Assembly: GCA_964414215.1 (NCBI GenBank)
Contig: CAYPVQ010000001.1
Coordinates: 1-46,990, forward strand
From: an uncultured Candidatus Saccharibacteria bacterium
GTDB taxonomy: Bacteria; Patescibacteriota; Doudnabacteria; UBA920; 2-01-FULL-46-14
Direction: 5' to 3'
Length of the DNA stretch: 46,990 nt
Of the stretch, positions 17,094-40,178 are shown piece by piece (the first letter of the stretch is position 1; each line of letters opens with the position of its first letter). Below the pieces are notes generated by a model. It worked only from the letters and a program-made list of their open reading frames with translations. It ran no database searches and was not told the origin of the DNA. A program made the position numbers and the translations under genes.

Positions 17094-18182
17094 ATGAACC
17101 AAGAACACCTCTATTTTAACGCCTTTAACCAAATTTCTCAAATCGGCTCGGTGCGGTTCCGCAAGCTCTTGAATTTTTTTGGGGGCCTTAAAGAGGCCTG
17201 GCAAGCCTCAGCCCCAGAGCTTATCGCCTCTGGTCTGGAAGAGGGAGTGGTGCAAAAAATTTTAGAAACTCGAGGACAAATTGATCCTGAGACCGAATTT
17301 AAAAAACTGCAAAAACAAAATATTAACCTCATCACCTTCAGCGAAGAGAGTTATCCGAAATCCTTGAAGGAAATTCCTAATCCCCCAGGGGTTTTGTATA
17401 TCTTGGGAGGTTTAGAACCAGTGGACGAACTAGCAATTGCCGTGGTGGGCAGCCGCAAGTTTAGCCCGTATGGAAAACAAGTAACTCTTGACCTTGCGCG
17501 CGATTTGGTACGAGCAAACCTCACGATTATCTCTGGGTTAGCCTTCGGCATTGACGCTTTGGCCCACCAGACCGCAATTGAGTTTTCCGGCCGGACGATT
17601 GGGGTGCTGGCCTGCGGTGTTGATGCGATTTATCCCGCCCAACATCGCGTGCTGGCCCAAAAAATTCTTGAAGGCCGCGGCGCCATTCTTTCAGAATTGC
17701 CTCTGGGAACTCCGCCTTTGAAACATCATTTTCCTCATCGCAACCGAATTATCTCGGGCTTAGCTTTAGGCACAGTGGTAATTGAAGCCGGACTTGATTC
17801 CGGAGCCCTAATTACGGCTCGGCACGCTTTAGAGCAAAACCGGCAAGTTTTTGCCGTGCCGGGTTCAATCTATAACGAAGCTTCCGCTGGACCAAATAAT
17901 CTTTTGAAAATGGGAGCAAAACTTGTTGCCTCGGTTAACGACATTTTGGAAGAGTTAAATCTGGGATCCTTACAAGCCCAAGTGGCAACTTCGCAAATTT
18001 TGGGAGATAATGAAGAAGAGCAAAAAATTTTAAATGTCTTAACCCGGCAACCTCTTCACTTTGACCAAATTACCAAAGCGATTAATCTGCCGGCTTCCAC
18101 CGTAGCCGCTGCTCTGACGATCATGGAAATGAAAGGCAAGGTGCGAAACCTCGGCGGAAATCAGTATGTTAAAAGCAGATGA
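17094..18182 (+). CDS. dprA: DNA processing protein DprA (Smf)
   Basis: 362 aa. Contains VVGSRKFSPYGKQ, GLAFGIDALAHQ and SGLALGTVVIEAGLDSGALITA, with a C-terminal winged-helix-like tail. Confidence 0.85.
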   Translation: MNQEHLYFNAFNQISQIGSVRFRKLLNFFGGLKEAWQASAPELIASGLEEGVVQKILETRGQIDPETEFKKLQKQNINLITFSEESYPKSLKEIPNPPGVLYILGGLEPVDELAIAVVGSRKFSPYGKQVTLDLARDLVRANLTIISGLAFGIDALAHQTAIEFSGRTIGVLACGVDAIYPAQHRVLAQKILEGRGAILSELPLGTPPLKHHFPHRNRIISGLALGTVVIEAGLDSGALITARHALEQNRQVFAVPGSIYNEASAGPNNLLKMGAKLVASVNDILEELNLGSLQAQVATSQILGDNEEEQKILNVLTRQPLHFDQITKAINLPASTVAAALTIMEMKGKVRNLGGNQYVKSR

Positions 18183-18324
18183 ATCACGAATCATGAATCA
18201 TGAATTACGGGGCAGCCCTCACTCTCTCCCCCTTTCCGCCGAAGGCGGATCTCAGCCGAAGGCTGACCAGCCTCCGGCTGGCGCAAAAGCCTCTGGCGGA
18301 AAAATAAGAGGGGTAGGGGGAGTT

Positions 18325-19452
18325 ATGAACCTAGTAACTTTAAGCATCATAATATCTTTATTCTGGCACCAAAAAGTCCTCGCCCCCTCTGCTCCTTCTC
18401 CCCCTGCTCCCCGATCTGAGGTCGGGGAGATAGGGGGAGACAAAGAGGGGGTTCAAACCATCCTCGCGGTCGGCGACATTCTCTTATCAAGAAACGTCGG
18501 CGCCAAGATTGACCAAGCCAATGATCCGACCCTGCCTTTTCAAAATCTCCAAGAGTTACTCGTAAGTGCCGACATCGCCTTTGGCAATCTCGAATGTCCG
18601 CTTTCAGATTCCCCCATCCCGATTCGCGAGGGACTAGTGTTTCGCTGTCTGACGAAATATGTTCCCGGATTAACATTCGCTGGATTTGATATTTTATCAA
18701 CTGCCAATAATCATGCGCTCGATCAGGGAACAAAATATGTTGGCTTTACCAGAGATTATTTATTTTCGCAAAATATCTTGCCAGTGGGCACTGGAGAAAA
18801 TCAAGACGAAGCATGGACTCCAGCCATTATTTCTCCTCACCCTACCCTCTCCTCTCAGAGGAGAGGGGGTGGGGGTGAGGAACCAAAAATCGCCTTCCTC
18901 GCCGTCTCCTATGCCTCCCACAACGACGGCGGCAAATCCCGCAACGATTATGTCGCGCGAATTGAAGATATTGAGATTCTAAAATCTAAAATCTTAAATC
19001 TAAAATCTTCCGACTACTTCGTCGTCGTCTCCATGCACGCCGGCACCGAATACACCCGCAACCCGAATCAAGAGCAGATTAATTTCGCCCACGCCGCCAT
19101 TGACGCCGGCGCCGACATTGTCATCGGCCACCACCCACATTGGATTCAGCCTGTAGAGGTGATAAAGCGAAAGGCCCCTGCCCCGTACCGAACCGAAGGT
19201 TCTGGTACTGGGGTCATCTTCTACTCCTTGGGCAATTTTATCTTTGACCAATCCTGGAGCCAGGAAACCAAAGAGGGACTGGTAGTAAAATTAAATATTA
19301 AATATCAAAAATCAAATATTCACTTGGAAAGCGCGGAACTCATTCCTGTGATCATCGAAAACAACTGCTGCCCGCGAATCGCGACAGAAGAAGAAAAAGA
19401 AAGAATCCTCAAAAAGATAAATCTCGAAACAGATACGCTATTCTTCCCCTAA
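18325..19452 (+). CDS. CapA-family (PGA-synthesis/metallophosphatase-like) protein carrying two palindromic insertions
   Basis: The start was trimmed to the ATG at 18325, preceded by GGGGGAG. Contains AVGDILLSR, FGNLECP, TANNHALD, SMHAGTEY and IGHHPH. Repeat-derived segments are at 18394-18452 (PPAPRSEVGEIGGDKEGV) and 18835-18880 (PHPTLSSQRRGGGGEE). Confidence 0.75.
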   Translation: MNLVTLSIIISLFWHQKVLAPSAPSPPAPRSEVGEIGGDKEGVQTILAVGDILLSRNVGAKIDQANDPTLPFQNLQELLVSADIAFGNLECPLSDSPIPIREGLVFRCLTKYVPGLTFAGFDILSTANNHALDQGTKYVGFTRDYLFSQNILPVGTGENQDEAWTPAIISPHPTLSSQRRGGGGEEPKIAFLAVSYASHNDGGKSRNDYVARIEDIEILKSKILNLKSSDYFVVVSMHAGTEYTRNPNQEQINFAHAAIDAGADIVIGHHPHWIQPVEVIKRKAPAPYRTEGSGTGVIFYSLGNFIFDQSWSQETKEGLVVKLNIKYQKSNIHLESAELIPVIIENNCCPRIATEEEKERILKKINLETDTLFFP

Positions 19453-20484
19453 CCACAATCCCTGCCAATTCAAAATCTCCTGCCGCAATTTGAAACTGTT
19501 GCCGTGGCTTAGCAAACCCAAATAGGACTGCAGGGTTTCATTGATGGGATGGTCACAGATTTTTCTAAATGCTCGCCGCTTTGTTGCCGCTCGTAAAACT
19601 CTATGATGCGGAAAATGCACCCATCCCAAAAAATCCACGCCTGAAGCCAACGGCTTGAGAATAATTTTGTCTGGATGCAGTGATAGACATAACCGCCGTT
19701 CCAAAAACCCTGAAATCTTACTAATCTGATCGGCTAGCCATTCGCGGTTTTCTGACAGCAAAACAAAATCGTCTGCGTAGCGGATATAGTATTTCGCTTT
19801 CAGCCCGTGCTTCACAAACTGATCAAGCTCATTGAGGTAAACGTTGCAGAATAACTGCGAGGTCAGATTCCCAAGCGGCAGACCTCGACCTATGTCATTC
19901 CCGACCTGATCGGGAATCCACAACATAGATTCCCGCTTTCGCGGGAATGACAGCACAATTTGCTCCAAAAGCCAAAGGATATTTTTATCCGGAATATAAG
20001 CTACCAAAATTTTCAGCAGGTTTGCATGATCAATGCTCGCGAAAAACCTTTTGATGTCTAGCTTCAGAACCCAAACAGTTTTGGTATTATTACTGCCAGC
20101 TTTTCGGCCAAATTCCCGCAAACGATTTAGTGCCTTATGGACTCCCCTGTTTAAGCGGCAAGAAAACGAATCAGCGATAAAAGTTCTGTCAAAAAACGGA
20201 TATAGCTGCCTGTAAATCGCGTGATGCAAAATCCTATCCCTCACCGCGGCCTTATGGATATTGCGCGGTTTCGGGTCAGAAATGTTAAAAGCATGGTAAC
20301 CGCCGTGCTCATAGGTAAAATTGGCAAGCTCGCTATGAAGCTGGACAAGGTGATCAGCGAGCCTTAAACTAAACTCCTGGACGTCTCGCTTGGCTCGTTT
20401 GCCAGGGATGAACTCCCGCCAGGCAGCCAGCAGGTTTTCCAGGGAAATAATCTCATCATAGGTTTTGTTAAATTGTTTCTTCAT
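19438..20484 (-). CDS. DGR-type reverse transcriptase
   Basis: 348 aa with RT motifs (LKLDIKRFFASIDH, GLPLGNLTSQLFCNVYL, YIRYADDFVLL, LGWVHF). The (I/L)GxxxSQ motif is typical of DGR RTs. An adjacent TR/VR pair and an Avd-like gene are present. Confidence 0.85.
   Translation of the reverse strand: MKKQFNKTYDEIISLENLLAAWREFIPGKRAKRDVQEFSLRLADHLVQLHSELANFTYEHGGYHAFNISDPKPRNIHKAAVRDRILHHAIYRQLYPFFDRTFIADSFSCRLNRGVHKALNRLREFGRKAGSNNTKTVWVLKLDIKRFFASIDHANLLKILVAYIPDKNILWLLEQIVLSFPRKRESMLWIPDQVGNDIGRGLPLGNLTSQLFCNVYLNELDQFVKHGLKAKYYIRYADDFVLLSENREWLADQISKISGFLERRLCLSLHPDKIILKPLASGVDFLGWVHFPHHRVLRAATKRRAFRKICDHPINETLQSYLGLLSHGNSFKLRQEILNWQGLWLGEE
19892..19952. repeat. 61-bp palindromic element (TIR tgtcattcccg / cgggaatgaca) inside the RT ORF
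   Basis: Encodes the extra segment (F)PRKRESMLWIPDQVGNDI just before GLPLGNLTSQ. The ORF continues through it. Related copies are at 20493-20580 and 40778-40836. Confidence 0.75.
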
Positions 20485-20492
20485 AGACGCAC

Positions 20493-20580
20493 TGTCATTC
20501 CCGATCTAATCGGGAATCCAGGTTCTGGATCCCCGTCGCAGTTTACTCTCGTGGAGACGGGGGGGGGGGCGGGAATGACA
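20493..20580. repeat. 88-bp element of the same family between RT and avd, containing a G11 tract
   Basis: Sequence tgtcattcccgatctaatcgggaatcc...cgggaatgaca. The G run spans 20559-20569. Confidence 0.75.
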
Positions 20581-20612
20581 AAAGATGAACTTTAAATTTT
20601 AAACTTTCCTTT

Positions 20613-20984
20613 ATGCCCCCCCCCAACGCAAATTTTTACACAACAACGGACTTACCCGTTGTCCAAAAAATTTCTACTGCTTTTAGACTATGGTATCAAT
20701 ACTTGCCGCACATTCCAAAATTGTTAAAACATTCGCTCGGCGAAAAAATCACTTCCCTGTTCATCCAGTTGGTTGAGCTAACTTTAATTGCCGGTTACTT
20801 CAGCAAAGACAAAAAACCAGAAATAATAAATAAGGCCATCCTGACATTGGATTTGCTAAAATACTTTCTGCAAATGGCCTTTGACGTGAAGGCCATTGAC
20901 AGCAAACAAACGGCATCAATAATTGCCCCGCTCGGTGAAGTTGGTAAAATGCTTGGCGGCTGGAAAAAACAATTGGCACAATAA
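20613..20984 (+). CDS. avd: Avd-like four-helix-bundle protein (DGR accessory variability determinant family)
   Basis: 123 aa with the helical pattern FRLWYQYLPHIPKLLKHSLGEKITSLFIQLVE...LDLLKYFLQMAFDVKAI...EVGKMLGGWKKQL. This is typical of the four-helix-bundle / 23S-IVS protein family to which Avd belongs. It lies between the RT and the TR but on the opposite strand. Confidence 0.7.
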   Translation: MPPPNANFYTTTDLPVVQKISTAFRLWYQYLPHIPKLLKHSLGEKITSLFIQLVELTLIAGYFSKDKKPEIINKAILTLDLLKYFLQMAFDVKAIDSKQTASIIAPLGEVGKMLGGWKKQLAQ

Positions 20985-21009
20985 ACCCTCTCTATGAAAA
21001 GAGAGGGTT
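20984..21009. terminator. 9-bp-stem hairpin between the avd stop and the TR
   Basis: aaccctctc-tatgaaaa-gagagggtt. It begins at the last base of the avd stop codon and ends 15 nt from the TR. Confidence 0.45.
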
Positions 21010-21024
21010 GTTCCCAACTTACTT

Positions 21025-21152
21025 GCGGACAGCGGGAAAACGATAGTTGTCGTTCCAGTCACCGGCCAGCTGATTCAGGTTGAGCTCGCGCTTCCTGTTC
21101 CAGTTGTTGAGCACCGGCGCACACTGGTTGTCGTTGTCATCGAGACAGACCG
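21025..21152 (-). repeat. DGR template repeat (TR)
   Basis: 128 bp, 115/128 identical to 21527-21654. It carries A (- strand) at every mismatch position. In the VR frame it reads VCLDDNDNQCAPVLNNWNRKRELNLNQLAGDWNDNYRFPAVR, with nine AAY Asn codons. Confidence 0.9.
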
Positions 21153-21425
21153 CCGTGAAATGTGCGATGCACCATCTATTACACTGCCTAAAGAATACTC
21201 TTTATGGCTGTATTTTATTTGCGGGGATTAAACCCGTCCAATGCACCGCACCGAGTTTCGTTGGAAACCTCTCTGCCAAGGAATACTCTGCCGCAAGCCG
21301 TAACCGGCGGCACTCTGATACTTGGCAGTGCGAGATAAACAATCCGAAAGTTTACCTGCCTTTGGCAGGCGTGCCCGCGGATTTTTCAAATTTATCTGGA
21401 TTTATTATAACAAACTTTCTAGAAC

Positions 21426-21474
21426 AAAAAAAGAACTCTTGGACCCCTGCAAAAAAACTGCAAGAGTCCAAGAG
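21426..21474 (-). terminator. intrinsic terminator downstream of the DGR target gene
   Basis: On the - strand, ctcttggac...gtccaagag (9-bp stem, 21474-21436) is followed by ttcttttttt. Confidence 0.6.
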
Positions 21475-21502
21475 CATAAGCACCATCGGAAGAGCCAAGG
21501 AT

Positions 21503-22165
21503 CTAAGTGTCCAAGAACTCTTCCTCGCGGACAGCGGGAAAACGATAGTAGCCGTGCCAGTCACCGGCCAGCTGAAGCAGGTCGAGCTCGCGCTCCCGGC
21601 TCCAGTTGTTGAGCACCGGCGCACACTGGCGGGCGATGTCATCGAGACAGACCGATGCCTCATCCAATAGCACGAGCGGGTTCTGCCGCTGACGTTCCGG
21701 GAACTTATAACCAATACCTGTTCCGTCGTCCAAATCACAGGGCCGGTCGCCAGTCTCCTTCATCCGCCGCTTCATCTCCTCGGTGGAGGCGTAGCCGCCC
21801 GGATTGTAGAGAACTATACGGCGGCGCATCCTGCGCTTCAGCTTGGATTTGTCCACCGTGATGTTCGGGTGGACGCCTCCTTTGAAATCGCAGAGCCGCA
21901 GACGTTCCGGGAACGAAACGGCCGGGTCAAGCTCGATCCAGCCCAGCTCCTCAACCTCTTCCTTGGGTTTGGGTGCAGGATGTTCCGCTTCCGGCTTCGG
22001 TGGCCGAGCGGCGATGGAAAGCGCCGCGATCTGCGGAGCTAAACTCTCCAGTCTAGCCACGTCGTCATCGTCACCATCGGCAGCGAGTATGGCATCAATA
22101 ACCGCATTAACAATAACGGTCATCTTCCCCCACCCGCGTCGAAAATCACTCTTTTTTTGAGCCAT
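21503..22165 (-). CDS. DGR target (variable) protein
   Basis: The start was trimmed to the ATG at 22165, preceded by GAGGAGG. 220 aa with an acidic/Pro-rich linker (DGDDDDV...PPKPEAEHPAPKPKEEVEE). The C-terminal ~42 aa are VR-encoded. A sample line was hand-counted at 57% GC, against 43% for a line in the LCP gene. Confidence 0.8.
   Translation of the reverse strand: MAQKKSDFRRGWGKMTVIVNAVIDAILAADGDDDDVARLESLAPQIAALSIAARPPKPEAEHPAPKPKEEVEELGWIELDPAVSFPERLRLCDFKGGVHPNITVDKSKLKRRMRRRIVLYNPGGYASTEEMKRRMKETGDRPCDLDDGTGIGYKFPERQRQNPLVLLDEASVCLDDIARQCAPVLNNWSRERELDLLQLAGDWHGYYRFPAVREEEFLDT
21527..21654 (-). repeat. DGR variable repeat (VR) at the 3' end of the target gene
   Basis: Encodes VCLDDIARQCAPVLNNWSRERELDLLQLAGDWHGYYRFPAVR. 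It has 13 substitutions relative to the TR, all at TR adenines, and ends 21 nt before the stop codon. Confidence 0.9.
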
Positions 22166-22365: not shown

Positions 22366-23446
22366 TGTACTAGATGACTACATCGGTAACAAGGGTCTGC
22401 TGGAAGTGGTATGCAAAGGGGGTTAAATAATTAAGGGATTGGTGAGGCCGGTAGCAGTTGTATTTGAGTAGCCATTTGGCGAGCTTGCGGTTGAACTCCT
22501 GGACATCTGCCGTCCAGTTCCCTTGCCGCAGAAACTCCTGCTTCAGAATGCCGCTTCAATCGTTCACAGACAGGGTTGTCTTTAGCGGTCTTGACCCGGG
22601 AGAAGTACTGGGGAATATCCAGGCTCTGCAAGGTCTTGGCAAACTCCTTTTCAAACTCACTCCCGTTATCCTGGCAGGTATTGAGGATGTTTCCTTTAGC
22701 TACCGCATAGAGTCGGATGAACAGGTCTTTGGCCGTGGCCGAGGAATGGGTTGTGTACATTCTTGCCCAGGCAATCTTGCTGACCGTATCTATGCCGGTG
22801 ACAATGTATCGGCGCAGTCCATTGCGGTGCAGAACAATGCTGTCAAAAGCCACCAGGAAGCCAGGGGTTTGCTGTTTCGTGAGTTCAATGGTTTTCCGCT
22901 TGGATACCGCCTGTTTTTTGAATTGCCGGTCAGTCTTTCCTGGTCTCCTCTGTAGATGGTACTTCTCAATCACCCGCTGGATTTTCCAGGAGGAGATGCG
23001 TTCGGGGTTCTCCCGTTCGTAGATGGCTTTGAGTTTCATCTTGCCATACTCGGGATTGAGATGTCGGAGGGCGAGGATACGATTCTCCTCAAGACGGGTG
23101 ATTTGAATATCCCGCCTGGTGACGGGGGCGCGGGATCCCTCCTCCAGAGATTTAAGGTTAACCAGGTCAAAAACAGCCTGCCATTTGTAGAAGGTTTTGG
23201 GAGTGATACCAAAATACCTGGCAGTTCTGCGGGCGTTCTTTTGGCCCCGGGTACGGTAATAGATAAACCACTCCAACTTCTGCTTGGCCTTAGAAGAAAG
23301 CTTCAACAGGGCAGCCTGTCTGCGCCAACGATCATATTGGTTTAACAAAGGACGGTCTTTCCAGAGAGGTTTGAGATAGAAATTCATGGCAACTCCTTTC
23401 TTTGCTATTCTAGCAAAGGTGTTACCGATGTATCTCATCTTTTACA
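22366..23446 (-). mobile_element. IS481-like insertion sequence (1081 bp)
   Basis: Imperfect terminal inverted repeats: tgtactagatgactacatcggtaaca (22366-22391) against the reverse complement of 23420-23446 (tgtaaaagatgagatacatcggtaaca). About 22 positions match, including a 12-bp perfect core. It is flanked by a direct repeat tgccg (22361-22365 and 23447-23451). Confidence 0.75.
22370..23387 (-). pseudogene. DDE (rve/integrase-type) transposase with a +1 frameshift near 22550
   Basis: The ATG at 23387 is preceded by GGAG. HTH region, FDSIV...QDNGSEF...NPVCER DDE core. After CERLKR the conserved continuation ILKQEFLRQGNWTADVQEFNRKLAKWLLKYNCYRPHQSLNYLTP is in the next frame and ends at 22370. 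Confidence 0.75.
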
Positions 23447-24100: not shown

Positions 24101-26275
24101 TTATAGAGACTTGCGGCGCAAGAACAGAGCATTTACGGCAACAATCACAGTGCTCAAAGACATAAACACCGCGGCTAGGGCCGGCTCGAGGAGAATTCCT
24201 TTTGATGCCAAAACCCCGGCCGCCAGAGGAAGCGCTATCACATTGTAGCCAGTTGCCCAAAAAAGATTCTGGATCATCTTGGTATAGGTAAGGCGCGACA
24301 GTTTAATAATTCTCACGATGTCGCGCGGATCGTTTTTGACCAAAATTATTCCGGCGGATTCAATGGCCACATTGGTGCCCGCGCCAATCGCCACTCCCAA
24401 ATCAGCTTGGGTCAAAGCCGGAGCATCGTTTACCCCATCGCCAATCACGGCAACTTTTAACCCGCGGCTCTGCAAGAGCTTGACCTTTTGAGCTTTTTCC
24501 GAGGGCAAAACTTTGGCAAAGTGCTCGTCTATCCCAAGTGTGGCGGCAACCCAAGCAGCAACGTCTTCGGAATCCCCGGTAATCATCGCGGTTTTTAATC
24601 CCATTGCTTTCAAAGCCCCGATAGCGCTTTTTGATTCCTCACGAATGACATCTGCTAAGGCAATAGCGCCAATTAATTTTCGTTCGGCAATCACATAGGT
24701 CACAGTCTTACCCTGACTTGCCAATTGGCCAATTTGTTTTCGCAAATTCTCGACCACATTTTCGGGAAATTTCGCATTCGCTTCCTGCAGCAAAAGTTCG
24801 TTGCCGACCACAATCTTTTTCCCCTCAATTTCGCCTCGAGCCCCTTTGCCCGCAATCCGTTGAAAATTTTTGACTTCCATAAGTTTTAACCCGCGCTGTC
24901 TTGCCTCCCCCGTCATGGCCTTGGCGATTGGGTGTTCCGAATGACTATTAACCGAGGCGGCAAGCCGCAACACTTCGGCTTCGGAAGCCTTCGCAACCGG
25001 GATTATGGTATCCACGCCAAATTCACCGCGGGTTAAAGTTCCGGTTTTGTCAAATAGCACTATGTCAATTCGCCTCGCTGCCTCCAAAGCCAGCCTTTGT
25101 TTTATTAAAAGTCCGTTTCGGGCGGCCATAGTTGTGGAAATCGAAGCCACGAGCGGAACCGCCAATCCCAAAGCGTGCGGGCAGGTAATAACCAGCACGG
25201 CGACCAGTCTCTCGGTTGCAAAAACCATTCCGGCTTTGGCCACGAGCCAGAGGACAAAAGTCAAGGTGCCGGTTGCGAGGGCGAGCTGAGTAGGATAGAA
25301 GGCAGTGCGGTCAGTGAGAAGTTGTGGGCGCGATTTCGAAGGTTTAGCTTCCGCAACAAGTCTCATCACGCCAGCCTATAACGTATTTTCGCCAAGTTGA
25401 TTGACCCGGATCTGAAGGCTTCCGTCGCCATTGATGGTTCCCGCAATGACCTCACTGCCAATAGCTTTGGAAACTGGCCGTGATTCGCCGGTTGCAATGG
25501 CTTCATTGACTTCTGATTTTCCTTCGATCACCTCGCCGTCAGCGGCAATTTTCCCTCCCGGCCTTGCCAAGATAACATCGCCAAGCTTGAGCTCCGAAAG
25601 CGGCACGGTTTCGGTTTTTGAGCTCCGGATTACTTCGGCTGTATCAGGAAGAAGTTTGGAAAGTTCTTTTAAGGCACTTTGCGCGCCGCGCACTGCCCGC
25701 ATCTCAAGCCAGTGCCCGAGGAGCATGATGGTAATAAGTGTCGTAAGCTCCCAAAAGAGCGTATGTTCCGGCTCGCCAAATGTTGCCTGCCCGCCGAAGC
25801 CTTGTCGAAGGAGGGCGTAAATGCTGTAAAAGTACGCCGCCGAGATAGCAATGGCAATTAGCGTCATCATGCCGGGAAGCTTGGCTTTAAGCTCCCTTAA
25901 GGCGCCTACTAGAAATACCCAGCCGCCGTAAAAAAACACAATTGAGCCCAGAGCAAGCGGCAAATATTCCGAACCTGCAAATTGCGGAGCCTTGAAGCCC
26001 AAAAGCTTTTGCGCAATGTCAGAATAAAGCACGACCGGAATAGTCAAGATCAAACTCACCCAAAATTTACGCAAGAACATAGCCAAACTATGCCCTTCGT
26101 GCTTATCGTGATGTTTGTTTTGCGCTTTGCGTTTTGCGTTTTTCGCTTCTAGCAAATTCATCCCGCACTCCGAACACATCCCGGGCTTATCCCGCATAAC
26201 CTCCGGATGCATGGGGCAGGTATAATAAATTACATTGGTATTATGCTGGTGGTGCATATGTGTTCTCCCTTTCAA
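24101..26275 (-). pseudogene. P1B-type heavy-metal P-type ATPase (CPH-motif, CopB-like) interrupted by one in-frame TAG
   Basis: N-terminal part (25376-26275): His-rich start, YYTCPMHPEV...CSECGMNL metal-binding domain and the TGES actuator motif. C-terminal part (24101-25369): CPH, DKTGTLT and GDGVNDAP. The junction reads GENTL-TAG-AGVMRLVAEA in a single frame (TAG at 25376-25378). Confidence 0.85.
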
Positions 26276-26939
26276 AATTATGATAATTCATCATATCGGA
26301 TGGCATGCTCTCGATTTGATATGCACCTTCTGGTTCCCGATACGAGATTAGAAGCAACGACGTGATAAACAGAAATACTATCCAGGGATAAGCAAGCCAA
26401 GGGTATTGATTAACCCAAAGGACTTCTGCAAATTTCAGGATCCCAGCAATAATCAGGGTGAATCCCAGCCACTGGTGGATTGCTGCAGTTCTTAATACCG
26501 CTTCGCTAGTACCGTGCTGCGGATGAGTAAAAAACAAAATCCCTATTACCGCTAATACAACTGGTGTAACAGATTGTAGAGCGGTTATATTTCTATTCGA
26601 GCGCAAATACCTTATTTCTGCACCCCCTGCCATTATCAAAAGAATCGCCATAAACATATGCTGTCGTTGCTGGGCATCCAAAATTGTCGCTTTCCAAGCA
26701 AGCGCAAGTTCGTCAAAGTGATGTGTAAATAAGAACAGGGGAAGAAAAAGACCTGCGGCAAGAATCAGAATTGGCCAAGAATACTTCCAAGCTTTTCCTT
26801 TCGCAAACTTTGCTGCCACCAACACTGCCAAAACACTGACCAGTGCAAATAAGCCACCCTCAATCCAATGGGCAAGGTTAGAAAAAAATTGAAGTTCATC
26901 CGGTGTATGAAGTTGTAAAATAATTGCTAATGAATCCAT
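26241..26939 (-). CDS. His-rich polytopic membrane protein of the metal operon
   Basis: 232 aa with ~6 TM helices and conserved-looking His motifs (THHFDE, QQRQHM, THPQHG, AAIHQW). It lies between the CsoR-like gene and the ATPase. Confidence 0.5.
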   Translation of the reverse strand: MDSLAIILQLHTPDELQFFSNLAHWIEGGLFALVSVLAVLVAAKFAKGKAWKYSWPILILAAGLFLPLFLFTHHFDELALAWKATILDAQQRQHMFMAILLIMAGGAEIRYLRSNRNITALQSVTPVVLAVIGILFFTHPQHGTSEAVLRTAAIHQWLGFTLIIAGILKFAEVLWVNQYPWLAYPWIVFLFITSLLLISYREPEGAYQIESMPSDMMNYHNFERENTYAPPA

Positions 26940-38335: not shown

Positions 38336-40178
38336 TCATTTTTTCTCTTCAAACTTCGCGTCTTCGGGCTTATCTTTGTTTTTGTCTTCCCCGGTCTGCG
38401 TTTGTCCGCGGTCCCCTTCCTGTCCGTGCTTGTCTGCGTCTTTGTACATCGCGGCACCAACCTTCTGGACCTCCTGACTTATCTCATCCATCTGTTTTTT
38501 GATGGCCTCGACGTCATTGCCGTCTTTGATTTTTTTAAGTTCTGCCACCTTTGTCTCCAGAGAAGTCTTGGTCGCGGCGTCAACTTTATCACCCGCATCT
38601 TTCAAAGTTTTTTCCACCACGTGGATCAGCTGGTCAGCTTGGTTGCGGGTATCAATTAATTCGCGGCGCTGACGGTCCTCTGCCGCATGGGCTTCGGCTT
38701 CTTTTTTCATGCGCTCAATTTCCTCTTTGGAGAGATTGGACGAGCCGGAAATCGTGATGTGCTGTTCTTTGCTGGTAGCCTTGTCCTTGGCCGTAACTTT
38801 CAAAATCCCGTTGGCATCAATGTCAAATGCAACCTCGACCTGCGGGATACCGCGCGGGGCGGGCGGAATGCCGTCGAGAATAAATCGGCCCAAAGATTTA
38901 TTGTCCGCGGCCATGGGCCGTTCGCCCTGGAGCACGTGAATCTCAACCGAAGTCTGACTATCTGAGGCCGTGGAAAAAACTTGAGACTTGGCTGTGGGGA
39001 TAGTGGTATTACGCTCAATGAGCGGGGTAGCCACGCCGCCCAAAGTTTCAATTCCTAAAGTTAGAGGAGTGACATCAAGAAGCAGTACATCCTTGACTTC
39101 TCCGCCCAAAACTCCGGCCTGAATCGCCGCCCCTTTGGCCACGGCCTCCATGGGATCAACCCCACGTTCAACTTTTTTCCCCAAAAAATCTTCAACAAAT
39201 TTTTGGACCAAGGGCATACGCGTCGGGCCACCAACCATAATAATTTTGTCAACTTCTTGCGGGGAGAGTTTGGCATCCGCTAAAGCCTGCTCAATGGAGC
39301 CGCGCGTTCGCTCCACAATTGGTTTAACTAACTCTTCGAGTTTGGCCCGGGTAATTTTCATGGTCAAATGCCGCGGCCCTGTCTGCCGTGATAAACGGCA
39401 GATTGAGCTCCGTCTCAAGCGTAGTCGAGAGTTCAATCTTGGCTTTTTCCCCGGCTTCTTTGAGCCGGTTAAAGGCCATTTTGTCACTGCGGACATCGAT
39501 GCCCGAATCCTTTTTGAATTCACTGGCAATATAGTCAATGATGACATTATCCATGTCTGTGCCGCCCAAGTGCGTGTCTCCCGAAGTCGACACGACCTCA
39601 AAAACTCCCTGGCCAAAATCCATGATCGTGACATCCAAAGTCCCGCCGCCAAAATCAAAAACCATAATTTTTTGTTCGGCTCCGGCTTTGTCCAGGCCAT
39701 AGGCCAGCGCCGCGGCCGTAGGCTCGTTAATAATCCGGATCACTTCCAATCCCGCAATCTCGCCAGCATTTTTTGTTGCTTGCCTCTGCGCATCATCAAA
39801 ATAAGCCGGAACCGTAATCACGGCTTGCTTGAGTGGGGTACCCAAATAAGCTTCGGCATCTCGTTTAATTTTTTGCAAAATAAAAGCGGAGATTTGTTCC
39901 GGGGTATATTCTTTAGTGCGCAACGCAATTTTTTCTTTAGTACCCATCTTGCGCTTGACCGCATAAGCTGTGCCTTCGGGATTGGTTACCGCCTGGCGCC
40001 TCGCTGGTTCGCCAACCAAAAGTTCGCCATCTTTCGCAATGGCCACATATGAAGGAAAAGCTTTACCGCCCCCGACAGTAGTCCCCTCGGCCGAAGGGAT
40101 AATCACCGGCTTGCCGCCTTCAAGCACAGCGGCGGCACTGTTGGAAGTTCCTAAATCGATTCCGATAATTTTGGGCAT
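38336..40178 (-). pseudogene. dnaK: molecular chaperone DnaK, reading frame broken near 39380
   Basis: The N-terminal ORF (39324-40178; [19 protein letters not shown]) is correct up to ...LPFITAD. The conserved continuation [18 protein letters not shown]...GGPTRMP... is in the frame of the 38336-39700 ORF. Only one nt separates gac (D) from ggg (G). Confidence 0.85.

Follow-up and report, generated by a model that had tools for sequence, protein, structure and literature searches.

A complete diversity-generating retroelement on a Patescibacteria chromosome, with a proposed control RNA upstream of its template repeat

Introduction

The diversity-generating retroelement (DGR) of Bordetella phage BPP-1, with the order mtd-avd-TR-brt (TR, template repeat), is the prototype of its kind. 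The locus described here raises the question of where the control RNA of a DGR lies when an inverted avd gene stands between the TR and the reverse transcriptase (RT) gene. We analysed positions 1–46,990 of contig CAYPVQ010000001.1 (assembly GCA_964414215.1); this whole stretch of 46,990 nucleotides is called the window, all coordinates are counted in it, and the loci and assemblies compared with its DGR are numbered L001 to L103. An earlier reading of the letters (here, the original prediction) had placed a complete DGR at 19438–22165. The DGR is real and complete, and very probably it was active recently; that the locus is a complete chromosomal DGR of a Patescibacteria (candidate phyla radiation, CPR) lineage, with the RNA mechanism proposed below, is a reading we hold with high confidence. 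A Patescibacteria DGR clade and the TR-(avd)-RT architecture were already known, and the window DGR is one further example of them.

A complete DGR with adenine-specific sequence transfer

The core of the element consists of the following parts.

21503–22165, minus strand: target gene, 220 aa, helical at its N-terminus, with a Pro/Glu/Lys-rich linker and, at its C-terminus, a weakly C-type-lectin-like domain that bears the variable repeat (VR)
21527–21654, minus strand: VR, target residues ~170–211; homology to the TR reaches 21520
21025–21152, minus strand: TR, whose 30 adenines all occupy codon position 1 or 2, with 9 AAY codons; homology to the VR reaches 21018
20613–20984, plus strand: avd, 123 aa, matching Pfam bAvd (PF22296) at 55.8 bits against a cut-off of 40
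19438–20484, minus strand: DGR RT, 348 aa, matching Pfam RVT_1 (E 4 × 10^-20), with GLPLGNLTSQ and YADD

The order along the locus is target (with the VR), TR, inverted avd and RT, where VR, TR and RT lie on the minus strand and avd on the plus strand. This is architecture B3 as catalogued by Wu et al. 2018 (PMC5758913), that is, a TR, a reverse-strand avd and an RT on the TR strand: the TR runs from 21152 to 21025 (−), avd spans 20613–20984 (+) and the RT runs from 20484 to 19438 (−). The same gene order together with A-biased TR/VR pairs was observed in L003, L004, L008, L009, L039, L042, L045–L047, L053, L054, L057 and L058; in L049–L051 the core order is kept and the VR lies on the opposite strand. 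A-biased TR/VR pairs were present in all intact relatives examined (>15 related loci).

Machine comparison of the two repeats at an offset of +502 gave 115 identities in 128 nt, in agreement with the hand alignment of the original prediction, and the 13 mismatches fall at exactly the sites given there (TR positions 21048, 21050, 21054, 21074, 21075, 21081, 21093, 21096, 21098, 21128, 21129, 21131 and 21134). All 13 are a T on the plus strand of the TR, i.e., an A on the coding minus strand, and the VR bases at these sites are a mixture of A, C and G. The original prediction had named a machine alignment as a check, and it returned 13 differing sites among the 30 TR adenines and zero non-adenine mismatches within the 128 nt. 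By chance, 13 mismatches would all land on these 30 T's with a probability of 5.7 × 10^-10, or 4.6 × 10^-8 if any single base type is allowed. The last 23 nt (21025–21047) are free of differences, as had been claimed. The 128-nt core stands but its end point does not, because the homology runs 7 nt further (21018–21152 and 21520–21654, 135 nt); this extension adds two mismatches, one at 21024, which is a TR adenine, and one at 21021, which is a TR thymine on the minus strand within the putative zone of the initiation of mutagenic homing elements (IMH in the VR, IMH* in the TR).

In the target frame, codon position 1 holds 11 of the TR adenines, position 2 the other 19 and position 3 none; 20 codons are variable (~4 × 10^17 peptides) and 1 codon is able to become a stop. 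A search of the window with the TR, its adenines replaced by N and up to 12 other mismatches allowed, found no second VR-like copy. Elsewhere, in L025 and L057, a single TR matches two VRs, which lie in tandem paralogous target genes.

The RT, with its LGNLTSQ motif, had been placed about 540 bp from the TR on the same strand, and its start at 20484 is 541 bp away. Its best match in the PDB is the Bordetella phage bRT (8ub7, E 1.4 × 10^-40, 143 bits), whereas group II intron and retron RTs reach ~70 bits (~1 × 10^-18); this comparison, a sequence search in place of a tree, identifies the RT as DGR-type. More than 8000 RT homologues were found, and those named by source are from Patescibacteria, Doudnabacteria or Jorgensenbacteria.

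Avd is present in most, not all, DGRs. The avd-like gene had been correctly located in the stretch that separates the TR from the RT, as the Pfam bAvd match shows, but its opposite (plus) strand had been missed. It also matches NCBIfam DivGenRetAVD (68 bits, E 7 × 10^-19), below the cut-off of 80, and a search of the PDB gave no sequence match for Avd. The inverted position of avd is kept in L003, L004, L008, L009, L039, L042 and L045–L058. With 13/13 adenine mismatches, a DGR-type RT and an avd gene, adenine-specific mutagenic retrohoming, as originally read from this locus, is supported.

Diversification observed between assemblies

The original prediction had suggested mapping metagenome reads to see whether variation is confined to the adenine-templated VR sites; here an independent assembly took the place of reads. 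L001 (SRR12113383) differs from the window at 4 positions in 2451 bp (21552, 21556, 21607 and 21609), and 4/4 are VR sites templated by TR adenines. Because the two assemblies are alike over 2.4 kb except for these four VR adenine sites, the diversification is later than any other mutation there, suggesting that the window DGR is probably still active. A sister element, whose RT is 70% identical, was available in two versions, L039 and L041. These differ at 16 positions in 3810 bp, 16/16 at A-templated VR sites, and their TR, leader (described in the next section), avd and RT are identical; the pair is a clean natural example of ongoing DGR diversification.

A conserved structured leader RNA between the VR and the TR

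The original account of the DGR held as far as it went but missed a conserved structured RNA in the VR-TR spacer. This spacer of ~350 nt is as well conserved in related loci as the coding regions, and read along the minus strand it contains an inverted repeat at the target stop codon, a terminator-like hairpin, an extended −10 box and a leader that extends up to the TR. The features in and next to it are the following.

21489–21528, minus strand: candidate IMH GCGAGGAAG and the adjoining 8-bp inverted repeat; sequence conserved in L002, L003, L004 and L009
21425–21475, minus strand: intrinsic-terminator-like hairpin of 18 pairs with a T-run, after the target gene; conserved in relatives (DNA fold)
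21404–21412, minus strand: extended −10 box TGTTATAAT, putative promoter of the leader-TR RNA
21153–21396, minus strand: structured leader RNA, ~240 nt, conserved in related loci; 5' end deduced from the promoter box
21285–21317, minus strand: leader stem P2, with the loop CGGUUACGGCUU, which with P1 was predicted by RNAalifold
21254–21269, minus strand: proposed primer strand of the leader, by its complementarity to the TR 3' flank
21240–21252 and 21162–21176, minus strand: 5' and 3' strands of P3
21222–21236, minus strand: P4
21209–21221, minus strand: A-rich segment CAAAUAAAAUACA
21186–21208, minus strand: P5
21010–21026, minus strand: candidate IMH* end of the TR, GCAAGTAAG, with the flank AGUAAGUUGGGAAC, which pairs with the proposed primer strand; the pairing is recovered by single-sequence minimum free energy (MFE) folding
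20986–21007, minus strand: 8-bp hairpin directly 3' of the TR, found in a scan for terminator-like structures, with compensatory changes in L004 and L008

A box of the form TTTGnTATAAT occurs at the same place in L002, L003, L004 and L009, and variants of it in L008, L039 and L025. RNAalifold on nine loci gave the stems P1–P5, in which 25/45 pairs were changed on both sides, and 94.8% of the cells of this alignment were paired versus 41–49% when the partners were slid. A covariance model of the leader core scored 170 bits at 21158–21319 and found the leader in 9 further loci outside its building set. In 8/9 of them, the RT match starts at 2501 of the locus and the leader match ends at ~1963–2010, which is the TR start; the ninth, L056, has another layout and its leader match likewise ends at the TR start. 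All nine have the TR-(avd)-RT order and an RT at least 44% identical. In the enlarged alignment of 18 sequences, 28/36 pairs were changed on both sides and 97.3% of the cells were paired, counts that are inflated because this alignment was fitted to the model structure; the slid-partner controls over both alignments gave 38–49%. When the 421-nt window RNA was folded alone, the MFE structure recovered P1–P5, the duplex between the leader and the TR flank, and the 3' hairpin (z = −5.3). The leader is a conserved structured RNA with strong covariation support.

Rfam at gathering thresholds found only two tRNAs in the window and no intron, retron or RT-10 RNA, and matches to the Rfam RT motifs at E ≤ 0.01 were found in 0/7 related loci. 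A 16-mer of the leader had 29 matches in viral contigs, among which L025 was the sole real relative. The possibility that the leader is coding (a 53-aa open reading frame (ORF) with a TTG start, 21228–21389) was rejected by indels that are not multiples of three and by changes that compensate in base pairs, and a decayed avd was rejected by a tblastn search with Avd, which found nothing there.

The hairpin at 20986–21007 is a candidate Avd-binding-type stem-loop and/or a candidate weak, possibly bidirectional terminator. In BPP-1 and other DGRs, an Avd-binding stem-loop is located just 3' of the TR (10.1101/2023.10.23.563531).

Pairing between the leader and the 3' flank of the TR

The suggestion that the repeat boundary holds an IMH/IMH* pair gained support from the recurrence of the boundary pair, GCGAGGAAG in the VR and GCAAGTAAG in the TR, in related loci, and both are candidates for these roles. 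Right after the IMH, an 8-bp inverted repeat (21489–21523), which is not GC-rich, spans the target stop codon and is a candidate cruciform or hairpin for target recognition.

On the TR side, a single-stranded stretch of the leader just 5' of P3, GGUUUCCAAC...ACU (21254–21269), is complementary to AGU AA GUUGGGAAC (21010–21023), which begins at the TR/VR homology boundary. The complementarity is kept in relatives whose strands differ in sequence.

L009: leader strand GUUUUCAAC, TR 3' flank GUUGAAAAC
L008: leader strand AAUGAAC, TR 3' flank GUUCAUU
L050: leader strand GAUUUUAGA, TR 3' flank UCUAAAAUC
L058: leader strand AGACAUU, TR 3' flank AAUGUCU

Over 15 non-redundant loci, the energies of the cognate duplexes summed to −174 kcal/mol, versus −103 ± 10 for permuted partners, with 0/20000 permutations as low. 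Shuffles that preserve composition gave −83 ± 8 (z = −11.7), and 12/15 loci were individually below 0.05. We also considered a pairing of the leader segment AGAGAGG with the 5' arm of the 3' hairpin and rejected it as a general feature, as it is confined to the window's own subgroup.

The target protein and its family

The VR had been described as the 3' end of a 220-aa gene, and it indeed forms the end of the ORF at 21503–22165 (−). The target has no Pfam or NCBIfam match. In an alignment with 35 close homologues, the hypervariable columns coincide with the VR, and the family alignment shows a conserved frame around it, CAPVL...W...LAGDW...RFPAVREEEFLD. A profile search collected 1341 representatives of 50% clusters at E ≤ 1 × 10^-3; a Pfam match was found in 0/26 diverse members of the family, and the family profile had no sequence match in the PDB. 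Scans of genomes and metagenomes for the target family gave at least 4 loci.

In the AlphaFold model (pLDDT 85), the N-terminal segment is helical, the linker disordered and the C-terminal domain compact. Foldseek searches of the PDB and BFVD with this model returned as top matches nearly all C-type lectin-like domains, at E 0.03–0.3 and with target-normalised TM of ~0.5, which weakly suggests that the C-terminal domain has a divergent lectin-type fold.

Palindromic repeats in and near the RT gene

Two copies of a palindromic repeat resembling a miniature inverted-repeat transposable element (MITE) lie in this part of the locus.

19893–19955, no strand assigned: MITE-like copy 1, of repeat families D2 and I2, inserted without loss of frame in a variable loop of the RT immediately ahead of GLPLGNLTSQ
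20493–20580, no strand assigned: MITE-like copy 2, in the divergent avd-RT intergenic region, which is lengthened to 128 bp

Their ends are the 11-bp inverted TGTCATTCCCG...CGGGAATGACA, found exactly in the window only at these two places. Copy 1 contributes 63 nt to the RT ORF and encodes ...SFPRKRESMLWIPDQVGND.... Homologues of the RT have inserts of 0–50 aa at the same loop, so that the loop seems permissive, and since many of these homologues hold unrelated repeat-like inserts there, it may be an insertion hot spot or the sole tolerated site. A 26-nt near-perfect inverted repeat, TTTCTCCTCACCCTACCCTCTCCTCT / AGAGGAGAGGGGGTGGGGGTGAGGAA (18830–18882), within a PGA_cap (CapA-like) ORF at 18166–19452 resembles a further palindromic repeat carried in frame inside a gene. 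Homopolymers were also seen close to the start of avd: a G11 run (20559–20569) in the intergenic MITE copy and a C9 run (20616–20624) at avd codons 2–4 (MPPPN...). They could give rise to phase variation or assembly errors affecting avd.

Proposed mechanism and alternatives

We propose that an extended −10 promoter just past the terminator of the target gene drives transcription of a separate non-coding RNA, which would consist of the ~240-nt structured leader, the 128-nt TR and a short 3' hairpin. A complex of RT and Avd would bind the leader, and the leader segment complementary to the sequence immediately 3' of the TR would pair with it, positioning cis-primed reverse transcription. Synthesis of cDNA would then cross the TR with misincorporation opposite adenines and halt on reaching P3, a 12-bp duplex that lies ~9 nt upstream of the TR. 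The mutagenised cDNA would replace the VR, in a direction set by the difference between IMH (VR) and IMH* (TR), and as a result up to 20 codons (~4 × 10^17 peptides) in the C-terminal lectin-like domain of the 220-aa protein could be rewritten. For promoter use, leader binding by RT-Avd, cis-priming, the stop at P3 and integration, we infer the steps from BPP-1. The order of elements in the proposed RNA would be primer strand, stop strand, stem-loop, A-rich strand, stem-loop, stop partner, TR and primer-binding site. It would amount to a rearranged form of the canonical DGR RNA, expressed separately, as a small RNA under a promoter of its own.

We give even weight, for and against, to the broader proposal that the whole TR-(avd)-RT clade carries the RNA module for RT-Avd binding, priming and stopping upstream of the template, where the BPP-1 equivalent is downstream. 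A published survey of DGR RNAs covered the surroundings of the TR from 40 nt upstream to 100 nt downstream (10.1101/2023.10.23.563531), a range within which the leader of this clade would be missed. If the proposal is true, the parts of the RNA scaffold by which mutagenesis is kept to one template can take other positions around that template, which would matter for the annotation of DGR RNAs and for compact DGR mutagenesis systems with separable template and control RNA.

Several points weigh against our account. The windows used in the duplex test were picked after viewing the data, and 3/15 loci have no significant duplex. As a terminator, the hairpin 3' of the TR is weak, with only UUUAUUG after it, and the 3' end of the RNA is uncertain. 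The coverage of L001 ends short of the TR, so that the constancy of the TR falls outside that comparison. Activity could have been lowered or lost through either the 63-nt in-frame repeat in the RT or the copy in the avd-RT promoter region. Lastly, the lectin fold is assigned from a Foldseek E of only ~0.03.

One alternative is that the leader serves only as a 5' untranslated region, as an element for promotion or stability, or as a small RNA with no relation to the DGR, and that the functional spacer, as in BPP-1, lies 3' of the TR, in a transcript running antisense through avd to the RT gene. The poor terminator just mentioned is in its favour, and published surveys put the Avd-binding stem-loop and the partner of the stop duplex downstream of the TR. 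In addition, the avd and RT starts are ~20–45 bp apart in relatives (L003, L009, L039), leaving little room for an RT promoter, so that read-through antisense to avd might supply the RT mRNA. Against it, the leader always ends within ~10 nt of the TR start and has, ordered as in BPP-1, a strand that can pair with the TR 3' flank, a 12-bp duplex next to the TR start, a short stem-loop and an A-rich strand. Moreover, in L099–L103, which have no intervening avd, the hairpin with the P2 loop is found 6 nt 3' of the TR. We regard a downstream spacer as possible but rather unlikely.

Another alternative is a fossil DGR, in which the A-to-N differences record past activity since silenced by the MITE-like insertions in the RT loop and the avd-RT promoter region. 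The two repeat copies, at 19893–19955 in the RT ORF and at 20493–20580 between the genes, speak for this reading, and decayed relatives do occur: L006 is a target gene alone, in L007 a C-terminal piece of the RT and what is left of the leader 5' end come after the target, and L002 keeps target, leader and TR, with no avd or RT in the ~2 kb of contig remaining downstream. In the window, however, the RT ORF remains open, and the same loop holds 0–50 aa in-frame inserts in many homologues. Nothing is broken in Avd, the TR, the leader, the candidate IMH or any of the RT motifs, the leader scores as high as in relatives, and the four VR adenine-site differences separate assemblies that are otherwise identical over 2.4 kb. 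We regard a silenced element as improbable.

The last alternative, an ordinary segmental duplication or gene conversion beside an unrelated RT of a group II intron or retron with a coincidental adenine bias, could appeal to the best NCBIfam match of the RT (a group II intron RT/maturase, 125 bits against a cut-off of 300, with no DGR RT family among the NCBIfam matches listed), but it is refuted by the adenine restriction (P = 5.7 × 10^-10) and its recurrence in >15 related loci, by bRT being by far the closest solved RT, by the presence of avd, and by the Rfam search, which found no intron or retron RNA.

Chromosomal setting

A prophage setting was ruled out, as the neighbours are housekeeping genes such as RNR, UvrA, TopA, DnaK/J, FtsA, HisRS and DprA. 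Directly upstream of the DGR target and on the same strand lies a gene for an IS481-family transposase (22431–23438; below the NCBIfam cut-off). L001 has the same transposase/target junction and departs from the window past 23688, in its last 19 nt, a difference that may stem from a true breakpoint or from an artefact at the end of the assembly. Two other genes of the window appear to be broken. The dnaK gene is apparently split (38336–40178), since a 454-aa ORF spans HSP70 profile positions 284–599 only and an overlapping 284-aa ORF lies upstream, and a P-type ATPase is apparently in pieces (24101–26939; 422 aa plus two ORFs upstream). These could be frameshifts, pseudogenes or assembly errors.

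Comparison with known systems

The window DGR resembles BPP-1 in the adenine-specific transfer from TR to VR, in an RT with IGxxxSQ and YxDD motifs, in Avd, in a candidate IMH/IMH* pair, in a candidate hairpin after the VR and in a VR at the C-terminus of a lectin-fold domain, which is weakly predicted in the window. The likeness appears to extend to the RNA. The BPP-1 spacer (Sp), 3' of the TR, starts with an Avd-binding stem-loop (Sp 3–33); a primer strand (Sp 53–56) pairs with the TR 3' end, with priming from A56; the "cPRT Stop" is made by pairing of Sp 59–70 with the 11 nt that immediately precede the TR; next in order come a short stem-loop (Sp 71–78) and A-minor adenosines (Sp 79–81); and the spacer ends with a single-stranded thumb ring and a long bRT-binding stem-loop (10.1101/2023.10.23.563531). 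The window leader has, in order, P2, the proposed primer strand, two nt, the 12-nt P3 strand, P4, the A-rich CAAAUAAAAUACA and P5, which are followed by the P3 partner strand ending 9 nt before the TR, the TR, the proposed primer-binding site and the hairpin. The window DGR differs from BPP-1 in that this module is 5' of the TR, with only a 22-nt hairpin between the TR and the avd end, and that avd is inverted and lies between TR and RT. In addition, the window has no match to Rfam RT-10, the BPP-1 spacer motif. It is also chromosomal, in a small-genome bacterium, and its target is a 220-aa protein without a recognisable domain and not a tail fibre.

RT-7 is one of the motifs RT-1 to RT-19 found near RT genes (Weinberg et al. 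2017, PMC5737381), a series that includes the BPP-1 spacer as RT-10. At relaxed thresholds, the sole Rfam signal in the leader was an alignment (E ~6 × 10^-4) of P2, which reads CAGAGU, stem, GGUUACGGC loop, stem, AGAGU, to the first hairpin in RT-7 (RF03028). However, this match reaches 25 bits versus a gathering score of 116.8 and is local to one hairpin, with the other ~145 model positions unmatched. The leader RNA is in no Rfam family and is undescribed in PMC5758913 and PMC8144416; its priority is uncertain, as this comparison took in neither Paul et al. 2017 nor the paper of Handa et al. in its journal form.

The more distant L099–L103 are IMG/VR contigs in which the RT is ~31% identical, no avd separates it from the TR, and a spacer of 170 nt precedes it. 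A hairpin with the 12-nt P2 loop CGGUUACGGCUU occurs in them ~6 nt 3' of the TR and is followed by a predicted stop duplex between upstream and downstream strands, an arrangement consistent with homology to the leader module. The loop CGGUUACGGCUU, which resembles that of the first RT-7 hairpin, may be a widely conserved protein-binding element of DGR RNAs.

The C-type-lectin DGR variable proteins Mtd, TvpA and archaeal AvpA resemble the target, as modelled, in that the VR is the C-terminal part of a compact alpha/beta domain. The target differs in that it is similar in sequence to no PDB chain, and the 50 Foldseek matches listed for it include no known DGR variable protein.

The closest kin are the CPR set with architecture B3 (PMC5758913) and DGR clade 2 of Roux et al. 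2021 (PMC8144416), a clade restricted to Patescibacteria whose targets typically have no recognisable domains. The window DGR shares their reversed avd order, has RT homologues 60–76% identical, and is likewise chromosomal among housekeeping genes, with a target that has no transmembrane segment or known domain. Judging from the named RT homologues and this setting, it fits clade 2 and differs from it in no kind. The window DGR is one more well-resolved case in a group already known to be common in Patescibacteria, to which it adds a large family of small targets without a Pfam family and direct evidence of recent diversification.

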